Shown piece by piece: positions 1-56,000 of a stretch of 64,000 nt of DNA. Position 1 is the first letter of the stretch. Each line of letters opens with the position of its first letter. The notes beneath the pieces were generated by a model that saw nothing but the letters and a program-made list of their open reading frames with translations, searched no databases and had not been told where the DNA came from. Origin of the DNA: Bacilli bacterium (GTDB lineage Bacteria; Bacillota_I; Bacilli_A; RF39; UBA660). The stretch is from assembly GCA_017404385.1 (NCBI GenBank), contig JAFRCK010000017.1, positions 3,419 through 67,418 on the forward strand, in the 5' to 3' direction. Both the position numbers and the translations under genes were made by a program.

Positions 1-67
1 ACCCTCTTATTCTGAAGCAAGAAAGAGAACTAAAGAAGAAGTAAAAATATTAACTGATGCTTATATA

Positions 68-1414
68 ATGAATAATAAATTAAGTAAAGTTGGTCTTGGT
101 AAAACATATCATATTATTACTTATGGATGTCAATCTAATGTAAGAGATAGTGAAACTATTAAAGCTATATTAGAAGATATGTCATTTACTGAAATAGAAG
201 ATATGGAAAAAGCAGATCTTATTCTATTAAATACATGTGCAATTAGAGAAAACGCTCATAACAAAGTATTTGGTATGATAGGAAGAGTAAAACATTTAAA
301 AGAAAAAAGACCAGATATTATATTAGCAATAGGTGGATGTATGGCACAAGAAGTATCAGTTGTTAATGAACTTGAAAGAAAAAAGAAATATGTTGATGTA
401 GTATTTGGTACTCATAATATTCAAAATTTACCTAAATTAATAAGTGAAGCAATAGATAAAAATGAACAAGTTATAGAAGTATTTTCTAAAGAAGGGGACA
501 TAGTCGAAAACTTACCTGTTAAAAGAGATAGTATGTATAAAGCATTTGTTAATATTATGTATGGTTGTGATAAATTTTGTACATATTGTATAGTCCCTTT
601 TACTAGAGGAAAACAAAGAAGTAGAAGAAAAGAAGATATATTAAAAGAAATAGATGATTTAATTAAATTAGGTTATCAAGAAGTTACTTTATTAGGACAA
701 AATGTTAATGCTTATGGAAAAGATTTAGATGAAAATATAACAATGGCAGAGTTATTGGAAGAAGTAGCTAAAATTGGTATTCCTAGAATTAGGTTTGTTA
801 CATCTCATCCATGGGATTTTACAGATGATATGATAGATGTTATTGCAAAATATGATAATGTAATGCCATATATACATTTACCAGTTCAATCTGGATCAGA
901 TAAAATATTAAAATTAATGGGTAGAAGATATACAAAAGATAGTTATTTAGAATTATTTCATAAGATTAAGGATAAAGTTAAGAACGCTACTATAACAACT
1001 GATATAATTGTTGGTTTCCCAGGTGAAACTGAAGAAGATTTTAAAGAAACATTAGATGTAGTTAATGAATGTAAGTATGATGGAGCATATACATTTATAT
1101 ATTCACCAAGAGAGAATACACCAGCTGCTTCTATGGAAGATAATGTTTCTTTAAAAGAAAAGGAAGAAAGACTTGCAAGATTAAATGAACTAGTTAATAA
1201 ATACTATAAAGAAAGTAATGATAAAATGCTTAATAAAGTAGTACCAGTTCTTATAGAAGGTGTATCTGATAAAAATGAAACTATGTGTGCGGGATACACT
1301 GATACTATGAAACTAGTTAATGTAAAATGTTCAAAAGATTATATTGGTAAAATAGTAAATGTTAAAATTACTGAAGCTAAAACTTGGAGTTTAGATGGAG
1401 TTTTAGATGAATAA
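68..1414 (+). CDS. miaB: tRNA-i6A37 methylthiotransferase MiaB (radical SAM, UPF0004 + TRAM domains)
   Basis: N-terminal YGCQSN cysteine motif, radical SAM CxxxCxxC (YGCDKFCTYCIVP), about 448 aa, C-terminal TRAM-like region. Confidence 0.8.
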   Translation: MNNKLSKVGLGKTYHIITYGCQSNVRDSETIKAILEDMSFTEIEDMEKADLILLNTCAIRENAHNKVFGMIGRVKHLKEKRPDIILAIGGCMAQEVSVVNELERKKKYVDVVFGTHNIQNLPKLISEAIDKNEQVIEVFSKEGDIVENLPVKRDSMYKAFVNIMYGCDKFCTYCIVPFTRGKQRSRRKEDILKEIDDLIKLGYQEVTLLGQNVNAYGKDLDENITMAELLEEVAKIGIPRIRFVTSHPWDFTDDMIDVIAKYDNVMPYIHLPVQSGSDKILKLMGRRYTKDSYLELFHKIKDKVKNATITTDIIVGFPGETEEDFKETLDVVNECKYDGAYTFIYSPRENTPAASMEDNVSLKEKEERLARLNELVNKYYKESNDKMLNKVVPVLIEGVSDKNETMCAGYTDTMKLVNVKCSKDYIGKIVNVKITEAKTWSLDGVLDE

Positions 1415-1748
1415 TATAATTAAAGATGTAGAAGAGTTAAAAGAATTAATTAAAGAATCAGATGAATATAAAGATTATACAAAAAGTAAAGAATTATTAG
1501 ATAATAATTCTAATGTAAAGAATTTAATTAATAAAATAACTAGTTTACAAAAAGATATAGTTCATAAACAAAGTAAAAAAATTGATGTTAAAGATAAAAA
1601 TAAAGAACTAGATTCATTATATGAGTCATTATATTTAATTAAAGAATATAATGATTATATATCTAGTTCCAAAAAGTTAAACATTTTAATATCTGATGTT
1701 CAAAAAAGATTTAATATATATTTTGATAGTTTAGTAATAGAAAAATAG
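1407..1748 (+). CDS. YmcA/RicA-like small helical protein (by position downstream of miaB)
   Basis: 113-aa K/E-rich ORF overlapping the miaB stop by 8 nt. Same arrangement as B. subtilis ymcB(miaB)-ymcA. No motif verified by eye. Confidence 0.35.
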   Translation: MNNIIKDVEELKELIKESDEYKDYTKSKELLDNNSNVKNLINKITSLQKDIVHKQSKKIDVKDKNKELDSLYESLYLIKEYNDYISSSKKLNILISDVQKRFNIYFDSLVIEK

Positions 1749-1771
1749 TTCTTATTCAGAACTATTTTTTT
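1741..1771. terminator. bidirectional rho-independent terminator shared by convergent genes
   Basis: A-run, perfect stem AGTTCT/AGAACT (1747-1763), T7 run. Both stop codons (TAG 1746-1748 on + and TAA 1752-1754 on -) lie inside the hairpin. Confidence 0.6.
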
Positions 1772-2750
1772 CTAACTTATTTAAATAATATATTACAATT
1801 CCACCTAGTACAAAAGCAACAATTAATCCGCATACTTTTTCAGTTGTAAATGTAATACTTGATTCTAGATTCATTGGTAGTATTATTGCACTTGATATTA
1901 TAAATCCTAGTATTAAACTCATAGTATTTCCTTTATGATTTTTTAATAACTTAGTTAATATCTTAGAACTTACTACAATACCAATTAAAACTCCTATTGC
2001 TAATATACCAAGTTTAAGATATATATTAAAATCAAATTTAGTTATATCAGCAACATATCCTCTAATTAAATCATATCTTCCTAATACAAGCATTACCATA
2101 GATCCAGATATACCTGGGAATATCATAGTAGCACCACCAACAATACCTAAACCAAATAATATTAACATATTCATAAATCCACTATCATCAGTTACTTTAC
2201 TTATACCACCATGTAAGTTAAAGTATTCAAGTATACCAATAATTGCAACTCCAACTAAGAAATAAACTATATTGAATTTTTCATTTTTCATTTCTTTATT
2301 ATATATTAATGGAATACTAAATATAATTAGACCCATAAACCAGAATATTGTTTCTGCTTCCATATGATCTAGAGTATAACCTAATATTTTAGCAAATGCA
2401 ACTAGACCAACCGCAACTCCAATTATTACTTTTAATACATATATAAAACTTTGTTTTCTAGTATCTGTCTTCTTTTTAAATATATCACTTATTGAATATG
2501 CTAATTTATCAAATAGACCAAAAATAACCATCATTGTTCCACCTGATACACCAGGTATAATATTTGCTATTCCAACAGCGATTCCTCCAAAGAATGATCT
2601 TAATTCAAATCTCTTTTCTTTATTTTTCTTTTCTAATTTCTTCTTATTCTTTTCTTCTTTCTTTAATACTCTTAGTTTTTGTTTTTTTGCCTTAGAAAGA
2701 TGTTTTTTCTTTTTCTTAGGTTCTTTTTCTTTTTTACCAAATAGTTTCAT
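1752..2750 (-). CDS. DUF368-family polytopic membrane protein (possible undecaprenyl-phosphate transporter type) with lysine-rich N-terminal tail
   Basis: Repeated PGVSGGT / PGISGSM motifs typical of DUF368, about 8 TM helices. GGAGG RBS 8 nt upstream of ATG (complement of 2748-2750). First about 55 residues are about 50% K. Confidence 0.5.
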   Translation of the reverse strand: MKLFGKKEKEPKKKKKHLSKAKKQKLRVLKKEEKNKKKLEKKNKEKRFELRSFFGGIAVGIANIIPGVSGGTMMVIFGLFDKLAYSISDIFKKKTDTRKQSFIYVLKVIIGVAVGLVAFAKILGYTLDHMEAETIFWFMGLIIFSIPLIYNKEMKNEKFNIVYFLVGVAIIGILEYFNLHGGISKVTDDSGFMNMLILFGLGIVGGATMIFPGISGSMVMLVLGRYDLIRGYVADITKFDFNIYLKLGILAIGVLIGIVVSSKILTKLLKNHKGNTMSLILGFIISSAIILPMNLESSITFTTEKVCGLIVAFVLGGIVIYYLNKLEKNSSE

Positions 2751-2846
2751 GTCTTTAACCTCCAATATAATTATATCATAAATCATTGACTTTTAAACGA
2801 ATAATTGTTAAAATTACATTGAATTTAAAGAGAAAGGAGTGAAAAC

Positions 2847-2945
2847 ATGAAGATAAGATTTTTTAATATTTATAATTTGTTTTTGGTTAGTAGTAAAATT
2901 AAGGGGAAGAATCGTTTTGTTTTTGCTCCTGGTTTTACTTGCTAA
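2847..2945 (+). CDS. 32-codon leader peptide ORF (MKIRFFNIYNLFLVSSKIKGKNRFVFAPGFTC) upstream of ABC exporter
   Basis: Strong RBS AAAGGAGTGA 6 nt before ATG. Stop codon abuts a terminator hairpin. Confidence 0.3.
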   Translation: MKIRFFNIYNLFLVSSKIKGKNRFVFAPGFTC

Positions 2946-2968
2946 CTACTTTTAAAGTAGTTTTTTTA
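2944..2968 (+). terminator. intrinsic terminator/attenuator in leader of ABC exporter
   Basis: AACTACTTT / AAAGTAGTT perfect complementary arms followed by T7. Lies between the leader ORF and the ABC start. Confidence 0.45.
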
Positions 2969-3099
2969 ATGGAATAAAAGAGGTGAGTGAAATGGAAAAG
3001 AAAAAAAAGAAGAAAAAAGAATAATTAAAAAAATATAAAAGTATATGGAACTTATTAAAAGAAGATAAAAAAAATTTAATTATATCTTCTATATTACTT

Positions 3100-4743
3100 G
3101 TGTTAGCGTCTCTAGCAACTTTGCCAACTGGATTTTTAAATGGTGCTGCTACTGAAAGTATAACTAAGATGGAGTTGAATAAAGCAGTAATTTATTTAAT
3201 AATTTACTTTTTAATAGTAGTATTAATGGAGGGTGTTTTATATAGCTCTGCTAGTGCAATGCTTCAAAAAGTTGAATCTAAATTAACTAGAAAATTAGGT
3301 TTTAATACTTATGTTAAAGCATTAAATTTGCCACCAAAGGCATATGAAAAACTATCATCTGGTGAAGTAATAAATAGAATAACAACAGATGCTGATTCAT
3401 TATCATTTGTATTTGGTAGATTACTTGATACATTTACTCATATTGCAGGTTCAATTTTATTATTATTTTATATTTTTTATATATCTCCAATTATTGGTTT
3501 AGAAATAGTATTTGTCGTTGCCATACTTGTATTTGTTATTAAAAAATATAATCCAATACTTGTAAAAACACATAAAGAAAGAAGAAAGGAACAAGATAAG
3601 TTTGCATCTCTTACTAATGAATCAATAAGAGGTATAAGAGAATTAAAAACTCTAGGTATTAAAAATAATTTAATTACTGATATGAGAGATTTAATTAAAG
3701 ATATATTAAATACTAGTATAAAAGAAATTGATACTAGAAGAAGATATGATATAATTACTAGATTTATAAGAGTATCATTAGAGGTAGGATGCTTTATAAC
3801 ATGTATTATATTATTATATTATGGAAAGATTAATTTAACTTTCTTTATAGCCATGACTTATTATATATATAGATATATGTATTTAATGGATTCTATTAAT
3901 GTTTTAACCACTGATTATCAAAGAGTATCTGTTGCGGTAGGAAGAGTAAATGAATTATTAAATAATGAATTATATCAAGATGAGAAATTTGGTGATAAAG
4001 AAATTGATTCTAAAGGAATAATTGAATTTAAAAATGTAACATTTGGTTATCCAAGAGAAAGGAATATTTTAGAAGATTTTAATCTTAAACTTGAACCAAA
4101 TAAAAAGATTGCTATTGTAGGTAAATCTGGTCAAGGTAAATCAACATTATTTAATCTTTTAACTAGAGTATTTGATGTAAAAAAAGGATCTATAACACTA
4201 GATGGAGTTAATATTGAATCTTTAACTGAAGAAAGTTTAAGAAAAAATATTTCTATAATTAGACAAGAGCCATTTGTATTTAATAGAACTATTAAAGAAA
4301 ATTTTAAAATATTAAATCCAAAAATAAATGTAGATGAAATTAGAGAATATACTAAACTTGCATATTTAGATGACTATATAATGTCTTTACCTAAGCAGTA
4401 TGATACTTTACTAGGTGAAGGTGGAGTAAATTTATCAGGTGGTCAAAAACAAAGACTAGCTATAGCAAGAACACTTGCTAAAAAGTCTAGAGTAATACTT
4501 TTTGATGAAGCAACTTCTGCACTTGATAATAATTCACAGGAATACATTAAGAAAACAATTGATAACTTAGTTAAAGATCATACAGTTATTATAGTTGCGC
4601 ATAGATTATCTACTATAATGGATGCTGATATAATATATGTTGTTGATAAAGGAAAAATAGCTGGTTCAGGTACACATGAAGAACTATTAAAAACAAATAA
4701 TATATATAAAAACTTATATGAAACTGAATCTTTAAATTCATAA
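3100..4743 (+). CDS. ABC exporter, fused transmembrane domain + ATPase (type I exporter)
   Basis: Six-helix TMD then Walker A GKSGQGKST, signature LSGGQKQR, Walker B ILFDEATSALD, H-loop AHRL. GTG 3100 is the track start. The reading frame is open from 3025 and an ATG with perfect RBS lies at 2992 in the same frame, separated by an in-frame TAA at 3022-3024. Confidence 0.7.
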   Translation: MLASLATLPTGFLNGAATESITKMELNKAVIYLIIYFLIVVLMEGVLYSSASAMLQKVESKLTRKLGFNTYVKALNLPPKAYEKLSSGEVINRITTDADSLSFVFGRLLDTFTHIAGSILLLFYIFYISPIIGLEIVFVVAILVFVIKKYNPILVKTHKERRKEQDKFASLTNESIRGIRELKTLGIKNNLITDMRDLIKDILNTSIKEIDTRRRYDIITRFIRVSLEVGCFITCIILLYYGKINLTFFIAMTYYIYRYMYLMDSINVLTTDYQRVSVAVGRVNELLNNELYQDEKFGDKEIDSKGIIEFKNVTFGYPRERNILEDFNLKLEPNKKIAIVGKSGQGKSTLFNLLTRVFDVKKGSITLDGVNIESLTEESLRKNISIIRQEPFVFNRTIKENFKILNPKINVDEIREYTKLAYLDDYIMSLPKQYDTLLGEGGVNLSGGQKQRLAIARTLAKKSRVILFDEATSALDNNSQEYIKKTIDNLVKDHTVIIVAHRLSTIMDADIIYVVDKGKIAGSGTHEELLKTNNIYKNLYETESLNS

Positions 4744-4744
4744 A

Positions 4745-4773
4745 GGTAGTTTGAAAAAAACTATCTTTTTTTT
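4745..4773 (+). terminator. rho-independent terminator
   Basis: GGTAGTTT...AAACTATC hairpin + T8. Confidence 0.55.
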
Positions 4774-4814
4774 AAATAATATTTATGTTATTATATAAAA
4801 AAGGAGGAGTATTT

Positions 4815-5267
4815 ATGAAAAAAATTGACAATGAAAAATTAAAAGAAAAAGGAAAGGGATTCTTTGGTGAATTTAAATCATTTGTTTTAAGAGGAAATGT
4901 TATGGATATGGCAATTGGTGTTATTATAGGTGGCGCTTTTGCTACTATAGTAACAGCCTTAACAACTGATTTTATTAATCCATTAATTAATAGTATTGGT
5001 GGAGCAGAATTTGGTGGAAAAATTCATTTACCATGGACACCAAATGGTGCTGAAGGCCAATATCTTCTTTGGGGAGATTTCTTAACAGCAGTTATTAATT
5101 TCTTAATAATGGCATTAATATTATTTATAATGCTTAAAATAGTTAATAAAATAGTAACAGTTGGTAAAAAGAAAAAAGAAGAAGAACCAGCAGCTCCAGT
5201 TAAATCAGATGAAACTATTCTTTTAGAAGAAATTAGAGATTTATTAAAAAAACAAAATAAGAAGTAG
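4815..5267 (+). CDS. mscL: large-conductance mechanosensitive channel MscL
   Basis: FKSFVLRGNVMDMAIGVIIGGAF signature. GGAGG RBS before ATG 4815. Track ORF starts 30 nt earlier. Confidence 0.85.
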   Translation: MKKIDNEKLKEKGKGFFGEFKSFVLRGNVMDMAIGVIIGGAFATIVTALTTDFINPLINSIGGAEFGGKIHLPWTPNGAEGQYLLWGDFLTAVINFLIMALILFIMLKIVNKIVTVGKKKKEEEPAAPVKSDETILLEEIRDLLKKQNKK

Positions 5268-5281
5268 GAAGGAATAAAAAT

Positions 5282-6175
5282 ATGGCAGATATGTTAGTTG
5301 CTAGAGATATTGTAAAAGTCTATGGCAAAAGAACTGTATTAAAAAAAGTAAACATGAATATCCAAAAAGGTGATATTTATGGTTTTATAGGTAAAAATGG
5401 TGCTGGTAAAACTACTTTCATGAGAGTTATTTTATCACTTACTTATCCACAATCTGGAGATGTAAAATTATTTGGTGATAAAACACTTCAAGAAGTAGGT
5501 TTAAAAGTTGGATCTTTGATTGAGGCCCCAGGTATTTATAAGAATTTAACTGGAGAAGAAAACTTAAGAAGATTTTCTATTCTATATGGAGCAGATCCAG
5601 ATAAAGCACCAGAATTATTAAAGTTAGTAGGGTTAAATAATACTGGTAAAAAGAAAGCAAAAGATTATTCTTTAGGAATGAGACAAAGACTTGGAATAGC
5701 TATTGCTTTAATAGGTGATCCAGAATTATTACTTCTAGATGAACCAATTAATGGTTTAGATCCAGAAGGTATTAAAGAAATAAGAGATTTAATTCTTAAA
5801 TTAAATGAAGAAAAAGGTATCACATTCTTAATTTCATCTCACTTATTAGATGAACTTGGTAAAGTTGTTACTAAGTATGGAATAATAAATGATGGTGAAA
5901 TGTTAGAAGAAATAGGTGCAGAAGAATTAAGAGAAAAATGTAAACAAAAATTAACTATTGAAGTAGATGATTTAGCTAAAGCTATGTCTATAGCTGCGAA
6001 AATAGTTAAGGAAGAAAATCTATCTGGTAATAAACATATTATGACTGTTGAAGGTGAAGTATCTAAAGCTGCTGAGCTTAATACTGCACTTGTAAAAGGC
6101 GGAGTTGCTGTTAAAGCTATCTATCCTAATTCAGATACTTTAGAAGAATACTTTATGAAAAGGATAGGTGAGTAA
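5282..6175 (+). CDS. ABC transporter ATP-binding protein (ABC-2/bacitracin-type exporter ATPase)
   Basis: Walker A GKNGAGKTT, signature YSLGMRQRL, Walker B LLLLDEP, H-loop SSH. Confidence 0.8.
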   Translation: MADMLVARDIVKVYGKRTVLKKVNMNIQKGDIYGFIGKNGAGKTTFMRVILSLTYPQSGDVKLFGDKTLQEVGLKVGSLIEAPGIYKNLTGEENLRRFSILYGADPDKAPELLKLVGLNNTGKKKAKDYSLGMRQRLGIAIALIGDPELLLLDEPINGLDPEGIKEIRDLILKLNEEKGITFLISSHLLDELGKVVTKYGIINDGEMLEEIGAEELREKCKQKLTIEVDDLAKAMSIAAKIVKEENLSGNKHIMTVEGEVSKAAELNTALVKGGVAVKAIYPNSDTLEEYFMKRIGE

Positions 6176-19921: not shown

Positions 19922-20757
19922 CATTTATAAATTTATATAAAAATAATTATAAACTTACTAACATGTGTGCCGTACTTAATATAAGTCCTAAAACCTATTA
20001 TAAATATAGAAATAAGGAAGATCCAGATTATTATGATTATTTAATGATAAAAGAAATATTTGATAATTCTAAGGGTACATATGGATATCGTAGGATTGTT
20101 GATGGCCTACTCCAAAAGTATGGTGTAGTTATGAATGGAAAAAAGGTATTAAGAGTAATGAAAAAATATAATTTAATGGCTGAATATATAAGGAAATCAA
20201 GGAAGAAAAATAAAAATGAGAGAATTGAAGATAATGTTAAACCAAATCTATTGAATAGAAATTTTACTACTGATGCACCAAATAAAGTGTGGGATACAGA
20301 TGTAACATATCTTATATTTAAAGGTTCAAGAGCATATTTATCAACAATAATAATAGATTTATATGATAGACATGTAGTTGCATATAAAATATCTAAACAT
20401 AATGATAATAAATTAGTTATAGATACTTTAAATGAAGCTTTATCAAAAGAAAAAGATGTACATGGATTGATCATTCACAGTGATCAGGGATTCCAATATA
20501 CATCTTTTGAGTACAAAGTTATTTGTGAATCAAACGGAATACAAATTTCTATGGCTAGAAAAGGAAATCCAATTGATGACTCTCCTATAGAGAGTTGGCA
20601 TCCACTTCTTAAGAAAGAAACTTTGTACAACAATAATATTACATCTTTACAAGAATATATTCAACTTGTAGAAGAATGGATATTATTTTATAACACAAAT
20701 AGATTAAAGTCAAAAGTTAAGAAAAAGAGAAAAACTTATACAAAAAGAGAAAAGTAA
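19880..20757 (+). CDS. IS3-family transposase OrfB (DDE integrase core), expressed as OrfAB by -1 frameshift
   Basis: -1 frame open from the A_AAA_AAA heptamer through HSDQGFQYTS (rve domain) to 20757. Track ORF 19963 is the internal Met. Confidence 0.75.
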
Positions 20758-24103: not shown

Positions 24104-24931
24104 ATGAAATTAAAAGTAAATAATTTTAATTTAAAAGATACTGTTACTTGTGGTCAAATATTTAGATTTGAAGAAGAAGTAGATAATTCTTATACAGTTA
24201 TTCTTTCTGATAGAGTAATTAATATAAAACTAGTGGGAAATGAATTAGTAGTAAAATCATCTGATGAAAATAATTTAGAAAAAGTAATAAGAAATTATTT
24301 TGATTTAGACTATGATTATGAAATAATAAATAAAGAATTGTTAAAAATAGATTCAAGTAATAAAAGTATAATTGATTCATGTAAAGGTTTAAAAATGATT
24401 AATGAACCTATATTTGAAACAATAATTAGTTATATAATTTCTTCTAATAATAGAGTTCCACAAATTAAAAAAGCATTAGATAATATATCTAAAACTTATG
24501 GAAAAAAAGTAGTTTTTAATAATAAAGAATATTATTTGTTTCCAAGTTTAGAAGAGATAAGTAATTGTGATATTAATACACTTAGAAATTGCAAGGTAGG
24601 TTTTAGGGATAAATACATTTATGAATTTATTAATAAAGTAAAGAATAATGAATTTGATATTAATAGAATTATAGAAATGAATAGTGAAGATGCACTAGAA
24701 TACTTAAAAACTCTTAATGGAGTAGGAGATAAAGTGGCTTCATGTATTTTATTATTTGCTTATCATAGATTTGATGTATTTCCAATTGATACATGGGTAA
24801 AAAAATATATGAAAGATAAGTATAATATTGAAGGAGTTAATAAAATACAAGATTTTGTGTATAAAAAATATAGAAATTATTCAGGTATAGTTATTCAATA
24901 TATGTTTCATTATAAAAGAAATAAGAATTAA
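24104..24931 (+). CDS. 8-oxoguanine DNA glycosylase (Ogg, HhH-GPD superfamily)
   Basis: OGG_N-like LKDTVTCGQIFRFEE and HhH-GPD LKTLNGVGDKVASCILLFAYHRFDVFPIDTWV with catalytic K and D. Confidence 0.7.
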   Translation: MKLKVNNFNLKDTVTCGQIFRFEEEVDNSYTVILSDRVINIKLVGNELVVKSSDENNLEKVIRNYFDLDYDYEIINKELLKIDSSNKSIIDSCKGLKMINEPIFETIISYIISSNNRVPQIKKALDNISKTYGKKVVFNNKEYYLFPSLEEISNCDINTLRNCKVGFRDKYIYEFINKVKNNEFDINRIIEMNSEDALEYLKTLNGVGDKVASCILLFAYHRFDVFPIDTWVKKYMKDKYNIEGVNKIQDFVYKKYRNYSGIVIQYMFHYKRNKN

Positions 24932-26001
24932 TTCTTATTTTTTTTAATTTTTATATTTGAAATTAATAATAATATTATTATGGGAATAAAAAATATGAAT
25001 ATAAAGTATTTCATCATAAAATTGGAACCTATGGTCGTATTATTAAATAATACTAATGAAGTTATAAAACTAATAATTATTATAAAACCAAATATTTTTT
25101 TATTATATTTATTAATATAATTAAGATATTCTTTAATAAAGAATAATGATAAAACAGTTGATATAAATATTGAGTACAACCATTCAATTGTAGATAAATT
25201 TTCAATATGTTGAATAAAGTCAAAGAAATTTACTTTTTTCATTAGAGTATATTCTGGATAACTTAAAATTCTAGCTAAATCTATGCCAAATACACCTATT
25301 ATAAAAATAAATAATAATAGAAAATTAATAATAGTTATTATATAAAAAATAATTATAGTTTTTGATAGTTTATTTGACTCATATATTTCATTTTTTGGTA
25401 TTACTAATAACATAAATGTAGGTGAAACAAAATATGATGTAAATAATATTGAATCTTTAATTATTTTAATTATAGGGGTATTAAACCAAGGTTTTAAATT
25501 ATTAATTTCTATAGAAGAATATAAATTTAGAATTGAAAAGAGAATTATAAAAACAGTTACTAAAAAAACAGATATTGATACCTTAGATATGGTTTTCATA
25601 TTTAATGATGCACACCATACAGCTGGTATTAAGAATAATAAAATTATAATAAAACTAGGTGTAGAATCTAAATATTTATTTTGCACATAAGTGTTAATAC
25701 TCCAAAGAGAATATATAAAATAAAATGTAAATATAATTACTAAAAAAACATTAATGATTTTACCATAAGATCTAAATAATTTATCGTTCTTTTTAAATAG
25801 ATTTAAATCTTTTTCAAAATTAAAATATCTAATAATAAAGAATAGTATTATCATAGATAATAATCCACCTAATAATATAGAATAAATACTACCATTACCA
25901 GATCCATTTAATAATTGATTTAACCCAGTATGTAGAAACATAGTCTGTGATATAAAAAATATAATTGAAGAAAAACCAATTCTACTTATTTTAGTGTTCA
26001 T
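24928..26001 (-). CDS. spore germinant receptor B subunit (GerAB/GerKB family permease)
   Basis: 10-TM APC-like protein, third gene of gerA-type operon. AAAGGAG RBS. Confidence 0.65.
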   Translation of the reverse strand: MNTKISRIGFSSIIFFISQTMFLHTGLNQLLNGSGNGSIYSILLGGLLSMIILFFIIRYFNFEKDLNLFKKNDKLFRSYGKIINVFLVIIFTFYFIYSLWSINTYVQNKYLDSTPSFIIILLFLIPAVWCASLNMKTISKVSISVFLVTVFIILFSILNLYSSIEINNLKPWFNTPIIKIIKDSILFTSYFVSPTFMLLVIPKNEIYESNKLSKTIIIFYIITIINFLLLFIFIIGVFGIDLARILSYPEYTLMKKVNFFDFIQHIENLSTIEWLYSIFISTVLSLFFIKEYLNYINKYNKKIFGFIIIISFITSLVLFNNTTIGSNFMMKYFIFIFFIPIIILLLISNIKIKKNKN

Positions 26002-27121
26002 ATTTTTCTCCTTTACTTGAATTACTTATTTCACCTTTTCTAGAAATATTAATATTTATTTTTGTTTCTAAATTATATTTTTCATTATTATAATTTGGAT
26101 AATCTAAATAAATAATTCTTTTTAGTCCTAAGAACTCACTATCTGTTTTTACATCTAAAACTTTGTTTATATAATCTTTTATTTTATTATTAGTTAATTT
26201 TTCTAATTCTGTAATTGTTTCTTCATTTATTTCTTTTTTACAATTGTATTCATTTATATTAGCATTTCCTTCTATATAAAAATTAATAATGAATTTATTA
26301 TTACTTTTATTAACATTTGATTTTGTTTTGCTACTAAGAATTGAGATAGATGCATAATTATTATCATCACATTTAACTGGTACAATCATTTGATCAATCT
26401 TATTCATAAGAAAATTATAGCCAATTGTTTCATCATTATCTAAATATTTTTCTAGTTTTCCATCTTTAGTAATAGCGATGTTGCTAAGTTCAATTCTTGT
26501 TTTAGGACTTGTCGTTTCACTATTATTAATAGTTGTTCCTTTATTATTAAAGTTTTCTACTTCAATTACGGATACCACTGGATCTATATATTTTTTTAAA
26601 TAAAAAGATAGAAATTCATCTAATTTAGAGGAATAGGTTAATGCACTTTCAATAGAAGAGTTTTCAATTGCGTTAGAAACATAATCAGCTGGAGTTGATC
26701 CATTTGTTAATACTTTTATTACATCTAAAGCCTGAATTCCTTTTGATATTGTGATAGTGAACTCGTCTTTTATTTCAGGTAATCTTTGAAATAAATCGAT
26801 TACATTAATAATCCCTTCTTTAGCAATTTCTTCAGATAAAACAAGTTTACTTAAATGTCCACCATATAGCTTTTTGTCAGCTGTATTAGTCATTTTCCTT
26901 AATGCTTCTTCTATAGTTGAACCGGTAGATTCAAACACAATTACTTTACTAGATTCAGATTCTTTTTCATCTTTTATATTCATAACTTGGGCACCAATTA
27001 AATATTTATCTTCTTTTTTATCAATAGAGATTGAAGAAACTATTCCAAGTTTATTTAATTCTTTATAGTTATAACAACCTGTTAATAATAATATAAATAT
27101 TATTGTTATTATCTTTTTCAT
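25991..27121 (-). CDS. spore germinant receptor C subunit lipoprotein (GerAC/GerKC family)
   Basis: Signal peptide + lipobox LLTGC. 376 aa. AAAGGAG RBS. Confidence 0.65.
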   Translation of the reverse strand: MKKIITIIFILLLTGCYNYKELNKLGIVSSISIDKKEDKYLIGAQVMNIKDEKESESSKVIVFESTGSTIEEALRKMTNTADKKLYGGHLSKLVLSEEIAKEGIINVIDLFQRLPEIKDEFTITISKGIQALDVIKVLTNGSTPADYVSNAIENSSIESALTYSSKLDEFLSFYLKKYIDPVVSVIEVENFNNKGTTINNSETTSPKTRIELSNIAITKDGKLEKYLDNDETIGYNFLMNKIDQMIVPVKCDDNNYASISILSSKTKSNVNKSNNKFIINFYIEGNANINEYNCKKEINEETITELEKLTNNKIKDYINKVLDVKTDSEFLGLKRIIYLDYPNYNNEKYNLETKININISRKGEISNSSKGEKYEH

Positions 27122-27122
27122 A

Positions 27123-28508
27123 TTATCTCCTTTTAGTATTTCTTGTTAATATTGAATTTCTTTTGTTTAATTTATATCTTTTAGTTAATATAAAATTATT
27201 CTTTTGTTCATCAAAGTTAAATGGTGCATATGGAACTGTATAATCAAATCCAAAACTATCTATAGAACAAACTCTAATTAGGAATAACAAAGAAGCAATA
27301 AATATTCCATATAGACCAACAAAGGCACCTAATAATAAAAATATTAGTTTCCATAGTCTAATTGTATTAACAACATCATTATCATTAAATAAAAATGAAG
27401 CTACTGAAGATATAGCTATTATGATTATCATAATAGGTGAAATAATTCCAGCATTAACAGCTGCATCTCCAAGTACTAAGGCACCGACAATCGACATTGA
27501 TGAACCAACGACAAATGGAACTCTGGTATCAGCTTCTCTTAGTATTTCAAAAGTGAACCATAAAAGAATTGCTTCAACAATTGATGGAAAAGGAACACCT
27601 TCACGCTGCATAGAAAAATTTATTAATAGAGATGTAGGTAATGTTTCTTGGTTAAATGTTGTTAAAGCAATATAAATACCAGGGGTAATTATCGCTACTA
27701 AAAAAGCAACTATTCTAATAATTCTTGTAATAGATACGTTTTTATTATTCTGATAATAGTCATCAATATTCTTTATATAATCAGAAAAGAAGGATGGTAT
27801 AATTAACACTTGTGGTGAATTCTCTACAACAATTGAACATCTTCCTTCCATCATACAAAATGATACAAAGTCAGGTCTTTCTGTCATTAAGTTAGTTGGG
27901 AACATATAAGACTTATCAGTTAGATTATCAGCTATATAATTACTATTAGCAACATAATCTAGACTCATTGTTTTTAATTTTTTTTCAATTTTATTAATTA
28001 AATCTTTATTAACAATGTCATCAACATATAAAAGAGATACTTTTGTTTTACTCTTTGTTCCAATAATAAATTCTTTAATAATCAATTTCTTTGATCTAAT
28101 TCTTTTTCGAATTAAACCTAAATTATTTTGATAATTTTCTGAAAATGAATCTTTAGGTCCTTTTATTACTTTTTCATTACTAGCTTCATTTATTCCAGAA
28201 TCAAGACTATACTTTGTTTCAAAAGCTATGTAATCATTATTGATGTTAATAATTGTAAAACCAGAGTATAAACAAAATTCTAATTCCTTATTATCTTTTA
28301 AATCTATAAAGTTATTAATTGGTAACTTGTTTTTAATGTCATTAATATTATCTAATTCATTATTTAATATTGGTTTTAAAATAAAATCGTTTATATCATT
28401 TGATGAACAAAGTGATTCAAAATATATGATATTAATAGTATTATTATTTATAATTATTTCTCTTTTTTTTAAATCGGGATTATTATTAATTAATTCATTT
28501 ATATTCAT
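27123..28508 (-). CDS. spore germinant receptor A subunit (GerAA/GerKA family)
   Basis: Soluble N-domain + C-terminal 4-5 TM. ATG (complement of 28506-28508) with AAAGGAG RBS. Track ORF extends to TTG at 28538. Confidence 0.65.
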   Translation of the reverse strand: MNINELINNNPDLKKREIIINNNTINIIYFESLCSSNDINDFILKPILNNELDNINDIKNKLPINNFIDLKDNKELEFCLYSGFTIININNDYIAFETKYSLDSGINEASNEKVIKGPKDSFSENYQNNLGLIRKRIRSKKLIIKEFIIGTKSKTKVSLLYVDDIVNKDLINKIEKKLKTMSLDYVANSNYIADNLTDKSYMFPTNLMTERPDFVSFCMMEGRCSIVVENSPQVLIIPSFFSDYIKNIDDYYQNNKNVSITRIIRIVAFLVAIITPGIYIALTTFNQETLPTSLLINFSMQREGVPFPSIVEAILLWFTFEILREADTRVPFVVGSSMSIVGALVLGDAAVNAGIISPIMIIIIAISSVASFLFNDNDVVNTIRLWKLIFLLLGAFVGLYGIFIASLLFLIRVCSIDSFGFDYTVPYAPFNFDEQKNNFILTKRYKLNKRNSILTRNTKRR

Positions 28509-28577
28509 AAAAAGCTCCTTTATAATTAGTTTGTACAATTTTTAATAAAATATAGTATAATAACACTAGGTGTTTTT

Positions 28578-44444: not shown

Positions 44445-44635
44445 TGATGAAGAAAAGTAGTAGTAAAAGAATACTATTTTAGAGAGTTAACGGTTGGTGA
44501 AAGTTAATTAGTACAATTTTATGAACTTGTTTTGGAACTAAAAACGTGTAATTACGATATAAATAGAGTGCATAGATTCCTATGAAGTAAGGTGGTACCG
44601 CTAGATATAGTCCTTACATTATAGGAATTTTTTTG
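44445..44635 (+). promoter_or_regulatory. T-box riboswitch leader (Leu-type by context) with terminator
   Basis: AGAGAG...GGTTGGTG stem I elements (44481-). T-box core AAGGTGGTACCGC (44589-44602). Terminator ATTCCTATGAAGTAAGG/CCTTACATTATAGGAAT + T8 (44576-44635). TATAAT at about 44421. Confidence 0.65.
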
Positions 44636-44656
44636 TTTAGAAAGGGAGAATCTTTT

Positions 44657-45052
44657 ATGAATTTTTTAAAATATTTTTTGATTTACGTTGCTTTTTTTAT
44701 AATTACTTATTTTGTATATTATTGGTTTTCTGTTAGACCAGTTGTTAATAATTATAAAAAGAAAAAGAAAGGTAAGAAAATAAAAAAAGAAAGAGAATTA
44801 CCTACTGAAATTAAATTATTAAAAAGTTATTATAAAGTTGATGTAGATAAAATAGGTGAAGTTAGAACATTAAGAATTGTTAATTTTGTTAATGCGGCTT
44901 TTTTATCATTACTAGTGATGATAGTTTTACCATTTAAAGAAGTTTGGCTTAAATTAATAATACTATTTGTTTTAATATTACCTTCTATATGGGTAGTGTA
45001 TTATTTTTTAGCAAAGTTTTTAAAGTATTTAGAGAGGAAGAGTGAAAGATAA
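44657..45052 (+). CDS. small 3-TM membrane protein between T-box and leuS
   Basis: AAGGGAGA RBS. Stop overlaps leuS ATG (TAATG). Confidence 0.45.
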   Translation: MNFLKYFLIYVAFFIITYFVYYWFSVRPVVNNYKKKKKGKKIKKERELPTEIKLLKSYYKVDVDKIGEVRTLRIVNFVNAAFLSLLVMIVLPFKEVWLKLIILFVLILPSIWVVYYFLAKFLKYLERKSER

Positions 45053-47466
45053 TGTATAATTTCAAGGAAGTAGAAAAAAAATGGATAGATTATTGGGATA
45101 AAAATAAAACATTTAAAACTGATACAACTGATTTTAGCAAACCTAAGTATTATGCTTTAGATATGTTTCCTTATCCATCCGGTGTGGGATTACACGCAGG
45201 ACACGTTGAAGGGTATACAGCAACTGATATAGTAGCAAGAATGAAAAGAATGCAAGGTTTTAATGTTCTTCATCCAATTGGATATGATTCATTTGGTTTA
45301 CCAGCAGAACAATTTGCAATTAAAACAGGTAAACATCCTGATGGATTTACACAAAAGAACATTGAATATTTTACTAAACAGTTAAAGACAATTGGTTTAT
45401 CATTTGATTGGGATAGATGTATATCTTCTCATGAACCATCATATTATAAATGGACACAATGGATATTTAAAAGATTATATGAGGATGGACTTGCTAAACA
45501 AGTAGATATGCCTGTTAACTGGTGTGAAGAACTTGGTACAGTTCTTGCAAATGATGAAGTTATTGATGGTAAAAGTGAAAGAGGCGGATATCCTGTAGTT
45601 CGTAAAAATATGAAACAATGGGTTATTGATATGCCTAAATATGCAGAAGAATTACTTTCTGGATTAGATAATCTTGATTGGCCAGAATCAACTAAAGAAA
45701 TGCAAAGAAATTGGATTGGTAAATCAACAGGTGTAGAAGTAGATTTTGATATAGTAGGTGGAGGTAAGTTCTCTATTTATACTACATGTATTGAAACTAT
45801 ATATGGAATAACATTTATGGTACTAGCGCCAGAAAATAAATTAGTTGATGAATTAAAAGAAAGAATTACTAACTTCGATGAGGTAGAAAAGTATAGAGAA
45901 GAAACAGCTAAAAAATCTGATTTTGATAGAACAGAAATGAATAAAGATAAATCAGGTGTTAAACTAGAAGGTGTTATGGCTATCAATCCAGTTAATAATA
46001 AAGAAGTACCTATTTATCTTGGAGACTTTGTACTTGCTAGTTATGGAACTGGAGCTGTTATGGCAGTTCCAAGTCATGATCAAAGAGATTATGAATACGC
46101 TACTAAGTATAATATTCCTATGATTCAAGTAATTGATGGAAAAGATACAAAAGAATGTGCATTTGAAAAACAAGATTATCTTGGTAAAGGATGTAAATTA
46201 ATTAATAGTGAAGAATTTACTGGTTTAACTGTAGAAGAAGCTAAAGAAGCAATAACTGATAAATTAGTAAAAATGGGTAAAGGTAGAAAACAAGTTAACT
46301 ATAGAATTAGAGAATGGATATTTGCAAGACAAAGATATTGGGGAGAACCAATACCTATAGTTAACTTTGAAGATGGTACTCAAGAAGCATTAGATGATAG
46401 TAAATTACCATTAATATTGCCAGAACTTTCTGATTATAAAGGAAGAAATGGAAAAGCACCACTTGAAAGTGCAACTGAATGGAAAAATGTTACTATAAAT
46501 GGTAAAAAAGGTACTTTAGAAACATCTACTATGCCTGGTTCTGCTGCATCATCATGGTATTTCTTAAGATATATAGATCCTAAAAATGATAATGAATTTG
46601 GTGATAAGAAATTGATTGATCATTGGATGCCAGTAGATTTATATGTTGGTGGACCAGAACATGCTGTAGGACATTTGTTATATTCAAGAATGTGGAATGA
46701 GTATTTATACGATAAAGGATTAGTTGGAGTAAAAGAACCATTTACTAAATTAGTTCATCAAGGAATGATATTAGGAAGTAATGGTTTAAAGATGGGAAAA
46801 AGATATCCAGAATATGCTGTTGATCCAATTGATGTTGCTAGTGAATATGGAGCTGATACATTAAGACTTTATGAAATGTTTATGGGACCATTAGAAGCTG
46901 AAAAACCATGGAGTGAAGAAGGAGTTAATGGTGCTAAAAAGTTTATTGATAAAGTATATAGAATGTTTATGGAAGAATCAAAGATAAAAGAAGAAAAGAA
47001 TTCTAACTTAGATAAAATATATAATCAGACAGTTAAAAAAGTAACTGAAGATTATGAAAAATTATCATTTAATACAGCTATATCTCAATTAATGATATTC
47101 TTAAATGCAGTACAAAAAGAAGACGTATTCCCTAAAGAATATGCTGAAGGATTTATAAAATTGTTAAATCCTATCGCACCTTTTGTTACTGAAGAAATAT
47201 GGAATAAGCTAGGTCATAATGATACAATATCCTATGAACCATGGCCAACATTTGATGAATCAAAAATGATTGAGGATACATTTGAAATGGTAGTTCAAGT
47301 AAATGGAAAAGTAAGAGGTAAAATAGAAGTTGATTCTAATACTTCAGAAGAAAATATGAAAAAACTAGCTAAAGAAGTAGAAAATGTAAAGAACTATTTA
47401 GATGGACACGAAATAATAAAAGAAATTGTTATCCCTAAAAAACTAGTTAGTTTTGTTATTAAATAA
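45052..47466 (+). CDS. leuS: leucyl-tRNA synthetase
   Basis: HIGH region PYPSGVGLHAGHVEGY. Editing and anticodon-binding regions collinear with LeuRS. 804 aa. Terminator 47464-47497. Confidence 0.9.
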   Translation: MYNFKEVEKKWIDYWDKNKTFKTDTTDFSKPKYYALDMFPYPSGVGLHAGHVEGYTATDIVARMKRMQGFNVLHPIGYDSFGLPAEQFAIKTGKHPDGFTQKNIEYFTKQLKTIGLSFDWDRCISSHEPSYYKWTQWIFKRLYEDGLAKQVDMPVNWCEELGTVLANDEVIDGKSERGGYPVVRKNMKQWVIDMPKYAEELLSGLDNLDWPESTKEMQRNWIGKSTGVEVDFDIVGGGKFSIYTTCIETIYGITFMVLAPENKLVDELKERITNFDEVEKYREETAKKSDFDRTEMNKDKSGVKLEGVMAINPVNNKEVPIYLGDFVLASYGTGAVMAVPSHDQRDYEYATKYNIPMIQVIDGKDTKECAFEKQDYLGKGCKLINSEEFTGLTVEEAKEAITDKLVKMGKGRKQVNYRIREWIFARQRYWGEPIPIVNFEDGTQEALDDSKLPLILPELSDYKGRNGKAPLESATEWKNVTINGKKGTLETSTMPGSAASSWYFLRYIDPKNDNEFGDKKLIDHWMPVDLYVGGPEHAVGHLLYSRMWNEYLYDKGLVGVKEPFTKLVHQGMILGSNGLKMGKRYPEYAVDPIDVASEYGADTLRLYEMFMGPLEAEKPWSEEGVNGAKKFIDKVYRMFMEESKIKEEKNSNLDKIYNQTVKKVTEDYEKLSFNTAISQLMIFLNAVQKEDVFPKEYAEGFIKLLNPIAPFVTEEIWNKLGHNDTISYEPWPTFDESKMIEDTFEMVVQVNGKVRGKIEVDSNTSEENMKKLAKEVENVKNYLDGHEIIKEIVIPKKLVSFVIK

Positions 47467-51633: not shown

Positions 51634-51921
51634 ATGGAATTAAGTGTATCAGGATTAAAAAAAGATGCAACTAAAATTGAAAATTTTAATAAGAATCTTG
51701 ATAATGATTATTTAAAAATACTTAGTGCACTTTCAACATTAGAAAAAATATGGACAGGTCCAAGAGCTGAAAGTTTTTATGATGCAATAAAAAGTATATA
51801 TTTAAAAGAATTAAAAGAAGTTATTAAAAGTTTAGATGATTATAGAAATTATGTGAATAGTGTTCCAAATGTGTATCAAACTCTAGATAGAAGTTATACA
51901 AATAAAAAAATTGATGTGTAG
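51634..51921 (+). CDS. WXG100 family protein (EsxA-like)
   Basis: 95 aa with central WTGPRAESF. GAGGAAAGGGGA RBS. Confidence 0.6.
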   Translation: MELSVSGLKKDATKIENFNKNLDNDYLKILSALSTLEKIWTGPRAESFYDAIKSIYLKELKEVIKSLDDYRNYVNSVPNVYQTLDRSYTNKKIDV

Positions 51922-51930
51922 GTGATTTAT

Positions 51931-52245
51931 ATGATATTTAACGAAGAAGAATTTCCAAATTCCATTCAGGCTTTTAATAAAATATATCAATCAATGGTAC
52001 GTACTAAGGAAAGCATGGAAACAATATTAAAAGATGTAAAGAATAATTGGCAAAGTAGTGCCTCAGATCAATTAATTATAAATATTAGAAATTCAATAAA
52101 AAAATTAGATACATATATAAATCAGGTTAGCAAAATTAAAGACTATATGGATGAAACTTTAGATCTATATTTAACTAATCAAGCAACTGGTATTAAAATA
52201 GCTGACGAAGCTCTTAATTCATCTGGTTCTATCAAGGAGGAATAA
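51931..52245 (+). CDS. WXG100-like small helical protein (WQS variant)
   Basis: 104 aa. NNWQSSASDQ central motif. GTAGGTGA RBS. Confidence 0.4.
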   Translation: MIFNEEEFPNSIQAFNKIYQSMVRTKESMETILKDVKNNWQSSASDQLIINIRNSIKKLDTYINQVSKIKDYMDETLDLYLTNQATGIKIADEALNSSGSIKEE

Positions 52246-52247
52246 TA

Positions 52248-52712
52248 ATGGCTTATGAGAATGTTGATGTAAATAAGGCAAGAATGGCTGTTAATAGCTG
52301 TTTAAATTCTTTACGTCATGGTGCTTGTGACAATTTTTTATCTGGATTAAGAAATAGTAATGAATGGGTTGCTGATAGTAAGTCAACCTTTTTGACTGGC
52401 ATAGATACTTTAGCAAATACTAGATATGTTGAATTAAAAAACTATTTAAATAAGTGTTTAGTGGCACTAGATAACATAGAAAAATATCAAAATTTACAGA
52501 ATCAAACAGCAACATATAATTCACAAATACAAGGTAAAAGAACAGAATTAAAAAATCAAAAAGAAAGATATAACAAAATGGATGATAAAACAACTACAGA
52601 AGCTAAAAATACCAAGAAAAAAATAGATACTTTAGAATCAGATATTAAGTCTTTAAGTTCTAAGGTGTCAAGTAATAGTACTGGTATGAGTGGTATTCAT
52701 TTAGATATTTAA
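52248..52712 (+). CDS. small helical protein, possible divergent WXG/T7SS-associated
   Basis: 154 aa. NEWVADSKSTF. AAGGAGG RBS. Terminator 52722-52753. Confidence 0.35.
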   Translation: MAYENVDVNKARMAVNSCLNSLRHGACDNFLSGLRNSNEWVADSKSTFLTGIDTLANTRYVELKNYLNKCLVALDNIEKYQNLQNQTATYNSQIQGKRTELKNQKERYNKMDDKTTTEAKNTKKKIDTLESDIKSLSSKVSSNSTGMSGIHLDI

Positions 52713-52760
52713 AATAATGCCAAAAAGTTATAAATAGTTATAACTTTTTTTTTATACTCA

Positions 52761-52790
52761 TTGACATAGATTAACAAAAAATAGTATAAT
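52761..52790 (+). promoter_or_regulatory. sigma-A promoter TTGACA-18-TATAAT for yukD-essC
   Basis: Consensus hexamers at 52761-52766 and 52785-52790. Confidence 0.5.
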
Positions 52791-52821
52791 TTTATATAGA
52801 TAATAATAAGGGATGGTTAGT

Positions 52822-53061
52822 ATGAATAATAAGATTTTAGTGGTAATATATTCACCATTAGTAGATAAAGAATTCGATGTGTTTATTCCTATAAATAAGA
52901 AGGTAGGAACTATAAAAAATATCATTTCTCAATCTATTAATTTTTTAGACTTGGGTTCAGAACATATTATAATTAATAAAGAAGATAATAAAATAGTAGA
53001 TGATAATGTCTACGTAGTTAATTCTGGAATAAAGAATGGGGCTAGATTAATACTTATATAA
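52822..53061 (+). CDS. YukD/EsaB-like ubiquitin-fold T7SS protein
   Basis: About 80 aa. ILVVIYSPLVDKEFDVFIPINKKVGTIKNII beta-grasp-like pattern. Immediately upstream of essC. Confidence 0.55.
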   Translation: MNNKILVVIYSPLVDKEFDVFIPINKKVGTIKNIISQSINFLDLGSEHIIINKEDNKIVDDNVYVVNSGIKNGARLILI

Positions 53062-53084
53062 AAGAATAAAGGGTGGGTGAAATT

Positions 53085-56000
53085 ATGAGAATTTCATTAT
53101 TAAAAGAAGAAAAACTATTGGTTTATAATTTACCTGAAAAAGTTGAAGGAAATTATTGGTTAAGTGAAACTGATAATAATGGTATAGAAAAAAATATAAT
53201 TAATGTTGAATCTACATCAGATGGTAAATGGAAATTAGTAAGTAATAGTGATTACTATGTTGCTGATAATTCTAAAAAAATACCATTTGCTCTTTTAGGT
53301 GGAAATAATATTTATACTGTAAATCATGCTTATTCTTTAAATAATCTTTTATTATTTACTAGTCCATCTTATGAAAAGGATATGAAATATTATAATTGTA
53401 CTAATAATATTAATATGGGTATTTCAATAGGAAGAAATGAAAAATGTACAATTACATTTGGGTTGAACTATGTAGGAGATACTGATTTAATAATAAAGTC
53501 TGAAAACAATATTATCACTTTATTTGCGCGAGAAGGAAAATATAATGTCTTTGTGAATGGTAAAAAAGTTATTGGCAAAACTCAAATAGAATCAGGAGAT
53601 ACTATATTCTATTTGGGTTTACAAATTACATTTTTAATAATAAATAATGATTATATTATAGGTGTTAATAATCCATTTAATACTGTTAAGGCATATTTAC
53701 CAGAATATAATATAAAAAAACATAAAGGTAATAAAGTAGAAGAACAAGACGAAGATAAAGAAATGGAACTTTATTCACAAGAAGATTATTTCTATAGAAA
53801 ACCTAGGTTTAAATATACAATAAATGAATATAAGATTCGAGTAGATGAACCGCCTACTAAAGAAGATGGAGATGAAATGCCTGCTATATTAACAGTCGGA
53901 CCAATGTTAACAATGAGTTTGACATCAATTATTACAATGTATACAACTATTAACAATATAAACAATGGTAATCAAACAGCTCAGCAAGCTTTACCTCAAC
54001 TTGTTATAGGTGGAGTAATGATTCTTAGTTGTTTATTCTGGCCAATGATTATAAGTGCATTTAGTAAGCATCTAAAAAAGAAAAAAGAAAAGAAAAGACA
54101 ATTAAAGTATGGTGAATATGTTGATTCGATTAAAACTAAACTTAACAATCAAAAGAAGATACAAGAAGATTTATATCATAAAAGATTCCCAAGTTTAATT
54201 GATTGTGAAAAAATAATACAAAACAAAGAAGATAGATTATATGAAAAAAGAGTATATGATGAAGATTTTTTAGAAATAAGTTTAGGCACAGGCACATTAC
54301 CAATGAATGTAGATGTTGATCTACCTGGAGAACATTTTTCGCTTGCAGAAGATGTTATGCTAAATAAGCTTGATGAAATAAAGAATTATAGAGTAGAACT
54401 AAATAATGTTCCTATACCTTTTTCGTTAAGAGAAAACTTTATATCAGCTATTATAGGAAAACCAGCCTTACAACAAAAAATGATTAATAATATATTACTT
54501 CAATTAATGACTTTCCAAAGCTATGAGTCGCTTAAAATTTCTGTATTTACATCAAAAGACAAAGCAAGAAATTGGGATTCATTAAAAACTTTGCCTCATA
54601 TATGGACAAATGGTATGAACATGAGATTTTTTGCTACTGATGAAAAAGAATACAAAGAAGTAACTTATGTTTTAGATCATATCTATGCTGATAGGCTTGA
54701 AAAAATAGGTGAAAATAATGATGCAACATTAGAATCATTTAATGAACTATATTTAATAATTGTAGATACTTATACTGCTGTTAGAAATATGGAATTATTT
54801 AATCATATAATTGGTAATAAAAAGTATTTAGGTTTTAGTGTTTTGATATTAAATGATAGAATATCTAATTTACCAGATCAATGTCAAACATTTATAGAAT
54901 TAGAGGAGACAGAATCTAAGGTATCAAAAAACATTTCTAATAGCACTACTCAAAAATTTAAAATAGATATGACTCCTATTGAACTCACAAAATGCGTTAC
55001 TAAATTATCTAGTATTCCCTTAGAATTAAAAAATGAAGGAGAAGGTGCAATACCAAAAAAAGTTGGATTCCTTGAAATGTTCGGACTAGGTAAAATAGAA
55101 CAATTTAATTCAAAATTAAGATGGAAAGAAAATACTCCTATTAAAAATATGTCTGTTCCTGTTGGAATTGGTAATAATGATGAAAAAATAACATTAGATA
55201 TACATGAAAAATATCATGGACCACATGGTCTTATTGCAGGTATGACAGGATCTGGTAAGTCAGAATTTATAATTACATATATTTTGTCATTGGCAGTAAC
55301 ATTCCATCCTTATGAAGTTCAATTTATATTAATTGACTACAAAGGTGGAGGATTAGCAGGTGCATTTGAGAATCAATCTATAGGTATTAAATTACCACAT
55401 TTAGTTGGTGTTATTACAAACTTAGATAAAAATGAAATTAATAGATCTTTAGCCTCTATTGAATCTGAGTTAAAGAGAAGACAAGCTTTATTTAATAAGG
55501 CAAGAGAAGCAAGTGAGGAAAGCACAATTGATATTTATAAATATCAAGAAATGTATAGAAAAGGCATAGTTGATGAACCTATATCTCACTTATTAATAAT
55601 TGCAGATGAGTTTGCTGAATTAAAACAACAACAACCTGAATTTATGGAACAACTAATATCTACAGCTAGAATTGGTCGTAGTTTAGGTGTACATCTTATA
55701 CTAGCTACTCAAAAACCTAGTGGTGTTGTTGATTCACAAATTTGGAGTAATACCAGATTTAGAGTTTGTTTAAGAGTTCAAGAAACTGGTGATTCATCAG
55801 AAGTAATAAAAAGACCAGATGCAGCTTATTTAACAACAACAGGTAGATTTTACTTACAAGTAGGTTTTAATGAAGTATTTGTATTAGGTCAATCTGCTTG
55901 GGCTGGAGGTAAGTATTTGCCTTCGGAAAATATCAAGAAAAACATTGATACTTCAGTTAGTTTTGTGGATAATAATGGTTATATTAAACAATCTATTGAA

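Follow-up and report, generated by a model that had tools for sequence, protein, structure and literature searches.

A private in-frame stop at codon 11 of an ABC exporter gene in uncultured gut Bacilli, behind a leader that resembles a transcription attenuator

The DNA examined here, a stretch of 64,000 nucleotides with a G+C content of about 25% (hereafter the window), carries an ABC exporter gene whose reading frame is cut at codon 11 by one base, a T at position 3022 where near-identical contigs from other samples have G. Taken as a whole, the evidence is probably best explained by a real and very recent G-to-T nonsense change at 3022 that has produced a null allele, a newborn pseudogene. 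What cuts the frame is a commonplace knock-out mutation, or else an assembly error, and not a recoding signal. Confined to one base and one assembly, and affecting a transporter gene of a common type, the stop codon is of little consequence in itself, and the leader that precedes the gene is the more interesting element. The parts of the exporter gene are these.

2992..3024, forward strand: severed head of the exporter, an ATG and nine codons (MEKKKKKKKE) with a premature TAA, homologous to the N-termini of orthologues.
3022..3022, forward strand: private base T, which is G in all other near-identical contigs (GAA, Glu11, to TAA).
3025..4743, forward strand: remainder of the exporter, 572 intact codons and the stop, with the PF00664 transmembrane domain (TMD) and the PF00005 nucleotide-binding domain (NBD), identical to the intact allele P0121.
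3100..3102, forward strand: GTG, the first canonical in-frame start past the stop, at residue 37 of the intact protein, without a Shine-Dalgarno sequence (SD) and within the first hydrophobic helix.

An earlier note on this DNA, made from the sequence alone, had described an exporter N-terminus interrupted after a poly-lysine stretch, and direct reading and translation confirmed this description. A strong SD (GAGGTGA, 2980-2986; anti-SD duplex −7.1 kcal/mol) lies five bases 5′ of the ATG at 2992-2994, which is followed by GAA AAG AAA AAA AAG AAG AAA AAA GAA and, directly after the resulting MEKKKKKKKE, by an in-frame TAA at 3022-3024. Beyond the TAA the frame continues from 3025 as LKKYKSIWNLLKEDKKNLIISSILLVLASLATLPTGF... 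and stays open for 572 codons up to the terminal stop at 4741-4743. That this continuation encodes an ABC exporter, as had been proposed, was upheld by Pfam, which placed ABC_membrane (PF00664; E = 2e-24) at residues 18-281 of the 572-aa query and ABC_tran (PF00005; E = 2.4e-31) in the C-terminal NBD. The Walker A (GKSGQGKST), signature (LSGGQKQR) and Walker B (ILFDEATSALD) motifs are all legible in the translation. Judged by its six-helix TMD and its NBD, the predicted protein is an ABCB-type (type IV fold) half-transporter; a complete N-terminus, with elbow helix and TM1 read from a single start codon, is absent in the window and present in the same-strain contigs.

The exporter shares PF00664, PF00005, Walker A, LSGGQ and Walker B with homodimeric exporters of the MsbA/Sav1866 type, and it aligns end to end with MsbA, both MsbA profiles and the 3b5y chain beginning at residue 13-15 of the intact protein. 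An AlphaFold2 model of the window's exporter (mean pLDDT 72.5) likewise predicts six long N-terminal helices followed by an NBD, although, unlike these relatives, the gene in the window is severed at codon 11. Identity as an MsbA (lipid A exporter) equivalog was considered and rejected: the exporter reached no equivalog cut-off in NCBIfam, scoring 333.8 bits with TIGR02203 (MsbA) against the 602 required and 299.5 with NF008381 against 867.

The earliest exporter start available to the open reading frame list is GTG 3100, with a product of 547 aa, and this codon was correctly placed inside the first transmembrane helix (TM1) by the earlier note, since residue 37 falls within the first hydrophobic segment (residues 26-54). 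In the AlphaFold2 model one long helix is predicted over residues 2-42 and 45-58. A start at residue 37 would thus remove the elbow helix, the positively charged head and the first third of TM1, and the GTG-3100 product would probably be non-functional. The public record (MBQ3474957.1) gives this 547-aa product as an ordinary ABC transporter, with no pseudogene label. The entry begins inside TM1 while the strain's real gene product has 583 aa, and an annotation pipeline would recognize it as pseudogenic or erroneous if it compared near-identical assemblies.

We then compared the site with orthologues. A protein search with the exporter returned thousands of homologues, the four nearest of which (89-93% identity, 581-583 aa) have the N-termini MKKNKKKRKEELKKYK or MKKKRKKNELKKYK. 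The ten codons 5′ of the TAA are homologous to these N-termini, and the codon that matches the TAA encodes Glu in the nearest orthologues. At the DNA level the nearest orthologue aligns base for base, with GAA GAA there and GAA TAA in the window. Because the nearest orthologues share the head, the poly-lysine stretch is part of the protein, and because both the ten codons and the DNA are homologous, the arrangement of ATG, TAA and open frame does not reflect chance. Across about 80 orthologous loci, all from metagenome-assembled genomes (MAGs) of uncultured gut Bacilli, the start was always an ATG located 2-12 codons 5′ of an LK(E/K)(F/Y)K motif. None of these orthologues (0 of ~80) began at the equivalent of GTG 3100, and in every one homology extends 5′ of the stop; starts at GTG 3100 with no upstream homology would have spoken against an interrupted gene. 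A stop at the codon-11 site was found in none of six same-strain contigs and in none of the ~80 orthologous loci.

Only this small clade has the poly-lysine head (MEKKKKKKKEE, MKKNKKKRKEE, MKKKRKKNE); the wider family starts MK(S/N/D)LKEFK and, like the MsbA/Sav1866-type exporters, has no such extension. Between the window's exporter and three sister-species orthologues dN/dS was 0.07-0.10, the same as between intact orthologues, and therefore constraint has not long been relaxed. Besides base 3022, the exporter gene shows no other sign of decay.

Same-strain contigs from other samples were retrieved through an exact match to the neighbouring YlbF-like protein. Six independent metagenome contigs proved identical to the window over the whole overlap, up to positions 1-5748, save for 3022, which is G (GAA, Glu11) in 6/6 of them and T in the window. 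We fetched further counterparts, so that 58,772 of the 64,000 bases were compared, and 3022 is the sole position among these at which the window differs from all near-identical contigs that cover it; wherever else variation occurs, one or more of the other contigs share the window's base. Over three 20-kb pieces (L094, L098 and L102) identity to the window was 100.000%. The intact 583-aa exporter is encoded on 17 contigs from several samples, and the truncated 547-aa product on one NCBI MAG record, MBQ3474957.1, which only a cluster look-up recovered; searching the gene-position index for the exact truncated sequence gave nothing. A scan of JGI metagenomes with the 45-nt site carrying N at 3022 gave no match, and the allele counts therefore rest on ENA, Logan and NCBI contigs.

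The suspicion that the interruption was not a simple homopolymer indel was borne out, the same-strain contigs revealing a clean G-to-T substitution at 3022, and an indel is ruled out. Also ruled out is a role of MEKKKKKKKE as a functional upstream open reading frame, as the same-strain contigs read straight through it. Since 5.9% of all possible coding single-base changes in the window create a stop, it is unremarkable that a lone private variant should be nonsense, and it is still less surprising because the earlier reader had sought exactly such anomalies.

In the course of events that we favour, the G-to-T change at 3022, private to one assembly, would turn codon 11 from GAA (Glu) into TAA, and translation from the native SD and ATG 2992 would end after ten residues at TAAT, the genome's standard stop signal. 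No SD-backed in-frame start would follow, GTG 3100 being the sole canonical restart, and the allele would be null, a newborn pseudogene without further decay. Its loss would be tolerated in that a terminator-based leader precedes the exporter and probably keeps it off without induction; the null allele would be cheap because the leader suggests that the exporter is normally off. What was found at the locus, a premature stop relative to full-length orthologues and no productive restart, corresponds to a pseudogene by nonsense. As in ordinary nonsense pseudogenes of draft and metagenome-assembled genomes, one substitution makes a premature stop relative to all orthologues and a shortened product has been annotated from the next start (MBQ3474957.1). 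The window's gene differs from these in having no second lesion and no relaxed dN/dS. If the event is real at all, it is extremely recent.

Whether the T is real decides between the two main explanations. We think it fairly probable that it is a private nonsense variant, recent or segregating, that is real in the sequenced population, so that the T would be present in the DNA and not merely in the consensus. Assemblers based on de Bruijn graphs emit only k-mer paths that are seen repeatedly in the reads, which favours a real base over a random read error. An assembly or base-call artefact, in which the organism has G at 3022, the gene is intact and the T arose from sequencing, library damage or consensus building, is the less likely account, although it deserves serious weight. 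The T is a singleton, with a sense codon in 6/6 near-identical contigs and in 17 contigs at the protein level, and there is no other private change in the gene or in 58.8 kb of flank; G-to-T is, moreover, the classic oxidative-damage artefact of library preparation. At 127,294 bp, an ENA contig with G at the site (ERZ27256797:k141_1300687) matches the NCBI contig exactly in length. Both may have been assembled from a single sample and differ at this one base; in that case T would be no more than one of two alleles in the sample. On the other hand, short-read de Bruijn graph assemblers seldom introduce substitution errors into the consensus of long, well-covered contigs, this one would be the sole error in about 59 kb, and contigs from other samples differ from the window by real strain-level SNPs at a comparable density. 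Of the options listed in the earlier note, a nonsense mutation and a base-call error were thus both strengthened by the Glu codon in relatives and same-strain contigs, whereas readthrough lost ground, TAAT being an ordinary stop context and the stop being conserved nowhere.

Any functional bypass of the stop has a very low probability. It is quite improbable that the stop is real but leaky, with some full-length or near full-length exporter made by readthrough, by reinitiation at the near-cognate ATA 3043 or ATT 3079, or by a double frame slip. The double slip would run −1 on the A8 and A6 runs (3001-3008 and 3013-3018) and then +1 on the A7 run (3027-3033), skipping the TAA; such a path exists on paper, the −1 frame being open from the A8 run to a TAA at 3036-3038, and A-runs are known as slippery sequences, but two independent rare slips multiply to a negligible yield. 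Readthrough is opposed by the context of the premature stop, TAAT, which is the commonest stop tetranucleotide in the window (19 cases) and a strong termination signal, and by the tRNA content of the window, whose sole tRNA is tRNA-Met. Nor did we find a site for efficient reinitiation: between the TAA at 3022-3024 and GTG 3100 there is no in-frame ATG, GTG or TTG, the nearest ATG (3045) is out of frame and yields MELIKRR followed by a stop, and no in-frame restart after the TAA is backed by an SD. Duplex energies were +3.7 to −1.5 kcal/mol for GTG 3100 and the near-cognates together, and +2.0 to −1.5 kcal/mol for the near-cognate candidates, compared with −7.1 kcal/mol at the native start. 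Because the stop is missing in all relatives, nothing here has been selected as a recoding device. It is more improbable still that the T is real and the allele not a clean null, a −1/+1 slip of the ribosome or RNA polymerase, or a near-cognate restart, giving a trickle of functional exporter; were this true, the nonsense SNP in the poly-lysine head would be an expression dimmer and not a knock-out.

An altered genetic code, in which TAA is a sense codon and the gene uninterrupted, has next to no probability. Nothing speaks for it save the in-frame position of the codon, and it is refuted by stop-codon usage and by the GAA at the site in same-strain contigs: TAA terminates 36 of the 47 long open reading frames in the window and so is not reassigned, and genes are long and intact under table 11. 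Programmed recoding (readthrough, selenocysteine or pyrrolysine insertion, codes 4 and 25) resembles this locus in having an in-frame stop inside a coding sequence, and in this alone; the window's stop is conserved in no relative, and its TAA stands in the strongest ordinary context. A search for a recoding signal or a suppressor tRNA, the tRNA part covering the 64-kb window, revealed neither. A programmed readthrough or recoding site was accordingly rejected, with the stop unconserved (0/6 and 0 of ~80), its context ordinary and TAA not reassigned.

With a recent nonsense change as the preferred reading of the gene itself, we turn to the region directly upstream of it, which holds the following elements.

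2786..2814, forward strand: promoter-like TTGACT-17-TAAAAT with a TG extension, a consensus match only.
2825..2849, forward strand: 5′ leader motif TTAAAGAGAAAGGAGTGAAAAC-ATG, which is helix strand A (paired 2835-2847) and holds the start signals (SD and AUG) of the leader ORF; it occurs once in the window, against 0 expected.
2847..2945, forward strand: leader ORF of 32 codons, MKIRFFNIYNLFLVSSKIKGKNRFVFAPGFTC and a TAA, kept open across relatives.
2883..2893, forward strand: mid-leader strand M, TTGGTTAGTAG, the proposed antiterminator strand, which pairs with 2940-2949 and so overlaps the terminator 5′ arm.
2917..2931, forward strand: helix strand A′, TTGTTTTTGCTCCTG, the last leader-ORF codons, complementary to the leader's own SD and AUG (MFE fold).
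2944..2967, forward strand: AU-rich intrinsic terminator with 5′ arm 2944-2951, loop 2952-2954, 3′ arm 2955-2962 and T-run 2961-2967.

The leader lies ahead of this exporter family in more than 100 loci of uncultured gut Bacilli (human, ruminant, rabbit), all carriers being uncultured MAGs; the loci used were window positions 2825-2991 on the forward strand, L001-L084 and L106-L196. In the nearest orthologue both the leader ORF and the terminator are strongly conserved, with an in-frame 9-nt indel. The motif TTAAAGAGAAAGGAGTGRRAAA-ATG hardly varies across 52 loci, in which the exporters share only 45-57% identity with that of the window. The leader ORF is open for 26-36 codons in 36/36 aligned loci, while the other two frames average 0.9 and 5.2 open codons, and its stop usually falls 1 nt past a helix strand. 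When a separate metagenome collection was scanned with the 21-nt motif, 91 stretches were recovered, and in 63 of them an exporter orthologue lay 166-204 nt downstream, behind a similar leader ORF. Rfam gave no match at E up to 10 on positions 2600-3200, and 12 orthologous loci gave only tRNAs; NCBIfam held nothing for the leader peptide.

The pairing of the leader helices was assessed on a structure-blind MAFFT alignment, with slid controls and 500 shuffles. One helix joins the SD and AUG of the leader ORF to the final codons of that ORF (duplex of −17.2 kcal/mol in the window), with compensatory changes at several pairs. This helix and the terminator helix were jointly 91% paired, compared with at most 59% in slid controls, with double-sided changes at 10 pairs and 0/500 shuffles reaching this value. 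In the terminator helix 95.6% of cells were paired and 5/7 pairs showed double-sided changes, and the hairpin with its T-run is present in most loci. The terminator abuts the leader stop codon (2943-2945). A consensus terminator scan did not detect it, because its stem has only 2 G-C pairs.

The third helix, the proposed antiterminator, joins strand M to the terminator 5′ arm and was 79% paired compared with at most 57% in slid controls (0/500 shuffles reached this). In the window the antiterminator has −9.5 kcal/mol and the terminator −7.4 kcal/mol. An alignment-free comparison of own with swapped strands gave duplex energies of −14.1 vs −10.8 kcal/mol for the SD-AUG helix and −9.4 vs −6.2 kcal/mol for the antiterminator. 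Relatedness among the sequences inflates all of these helix tests, but explicit compensatory changes are nonetheless visible, one example being ACTGCT/AGCAGT in locus L060, matched in all three strands. A conserved partner that would sequester strand M in the off state was sought and none was found.

A conserved leader ORF with its own SD, an intrinsic terminator and a mutually exclusive antiterminator overlapping the ORF are all present, and the leader looks like a putative bmrB-like, ribosome-dependent transcription attenuator. Such an arrangement suggests that the exporter is normally off. The nearest known analogue is bmrB-bmrCD of Bacillus subtilis, a ribosome-mediated transcription attenuator (PMC4191407). 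Common to both are a small ORF directly upstream of an ABC exporter and alternative stem-loops that include an intrinsic terminator, yet bmrB-bmrCD has no sequence similarity to the window's leader. The latter is some 30 codons long, and a long helix ties its SD and AUG to its final codons. The transporters also differ, being a heterodimer pair in B. subtilis and a single homodimer-type gene in the window. If the leader senses translation stress as bmrB does, it would point to efflux under inducible control in a section of the gut microbiota about which little is known.

Several observations concern the rest of the window. A transposase ORF of IS type (HTH_21, rve, rve_3) lies at 19963-20757 on the forward strand; other samples' contigs end at 20308 and 20506, and one has clustered mismatches at 20386-20487, a pattern expected where a repeat interrupts assembly. 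The stretch 44605-45180 is hypervariable: one contig that is otherwise ~99.9% identical to the window (L103) differs at ~100 positions within 600 nt, which suggests a local recombination patch. This stretch covers a small ORF (44633-45052) just upstream of the leucyl-tRNA synthetase gene. For MscL, the real start is downstream of the longest-ORF start. Spore-germination genes (spore permease, GerAC, GerA) occur at 24928-28538 on the reverse strand; genomes of this kind, from uncultured gut Bacilli with 25% G+C, are often classified as 'Tenericutes' or Erysipelotrichaceae. A type VII secretion-like cluster occupies 51900-64000 on the forward strand, with small ORFs that match WXG100 in a sister strain, a 1540-aa FtsK/SpoIIIE ATPase (53073-57707) and a very large ORF from ~58132 with an ADP-ribosyltransferase exotoxin domain (PF03496). 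The gene that follows the FtsK/SpoIIIE ATPase differs between strains.
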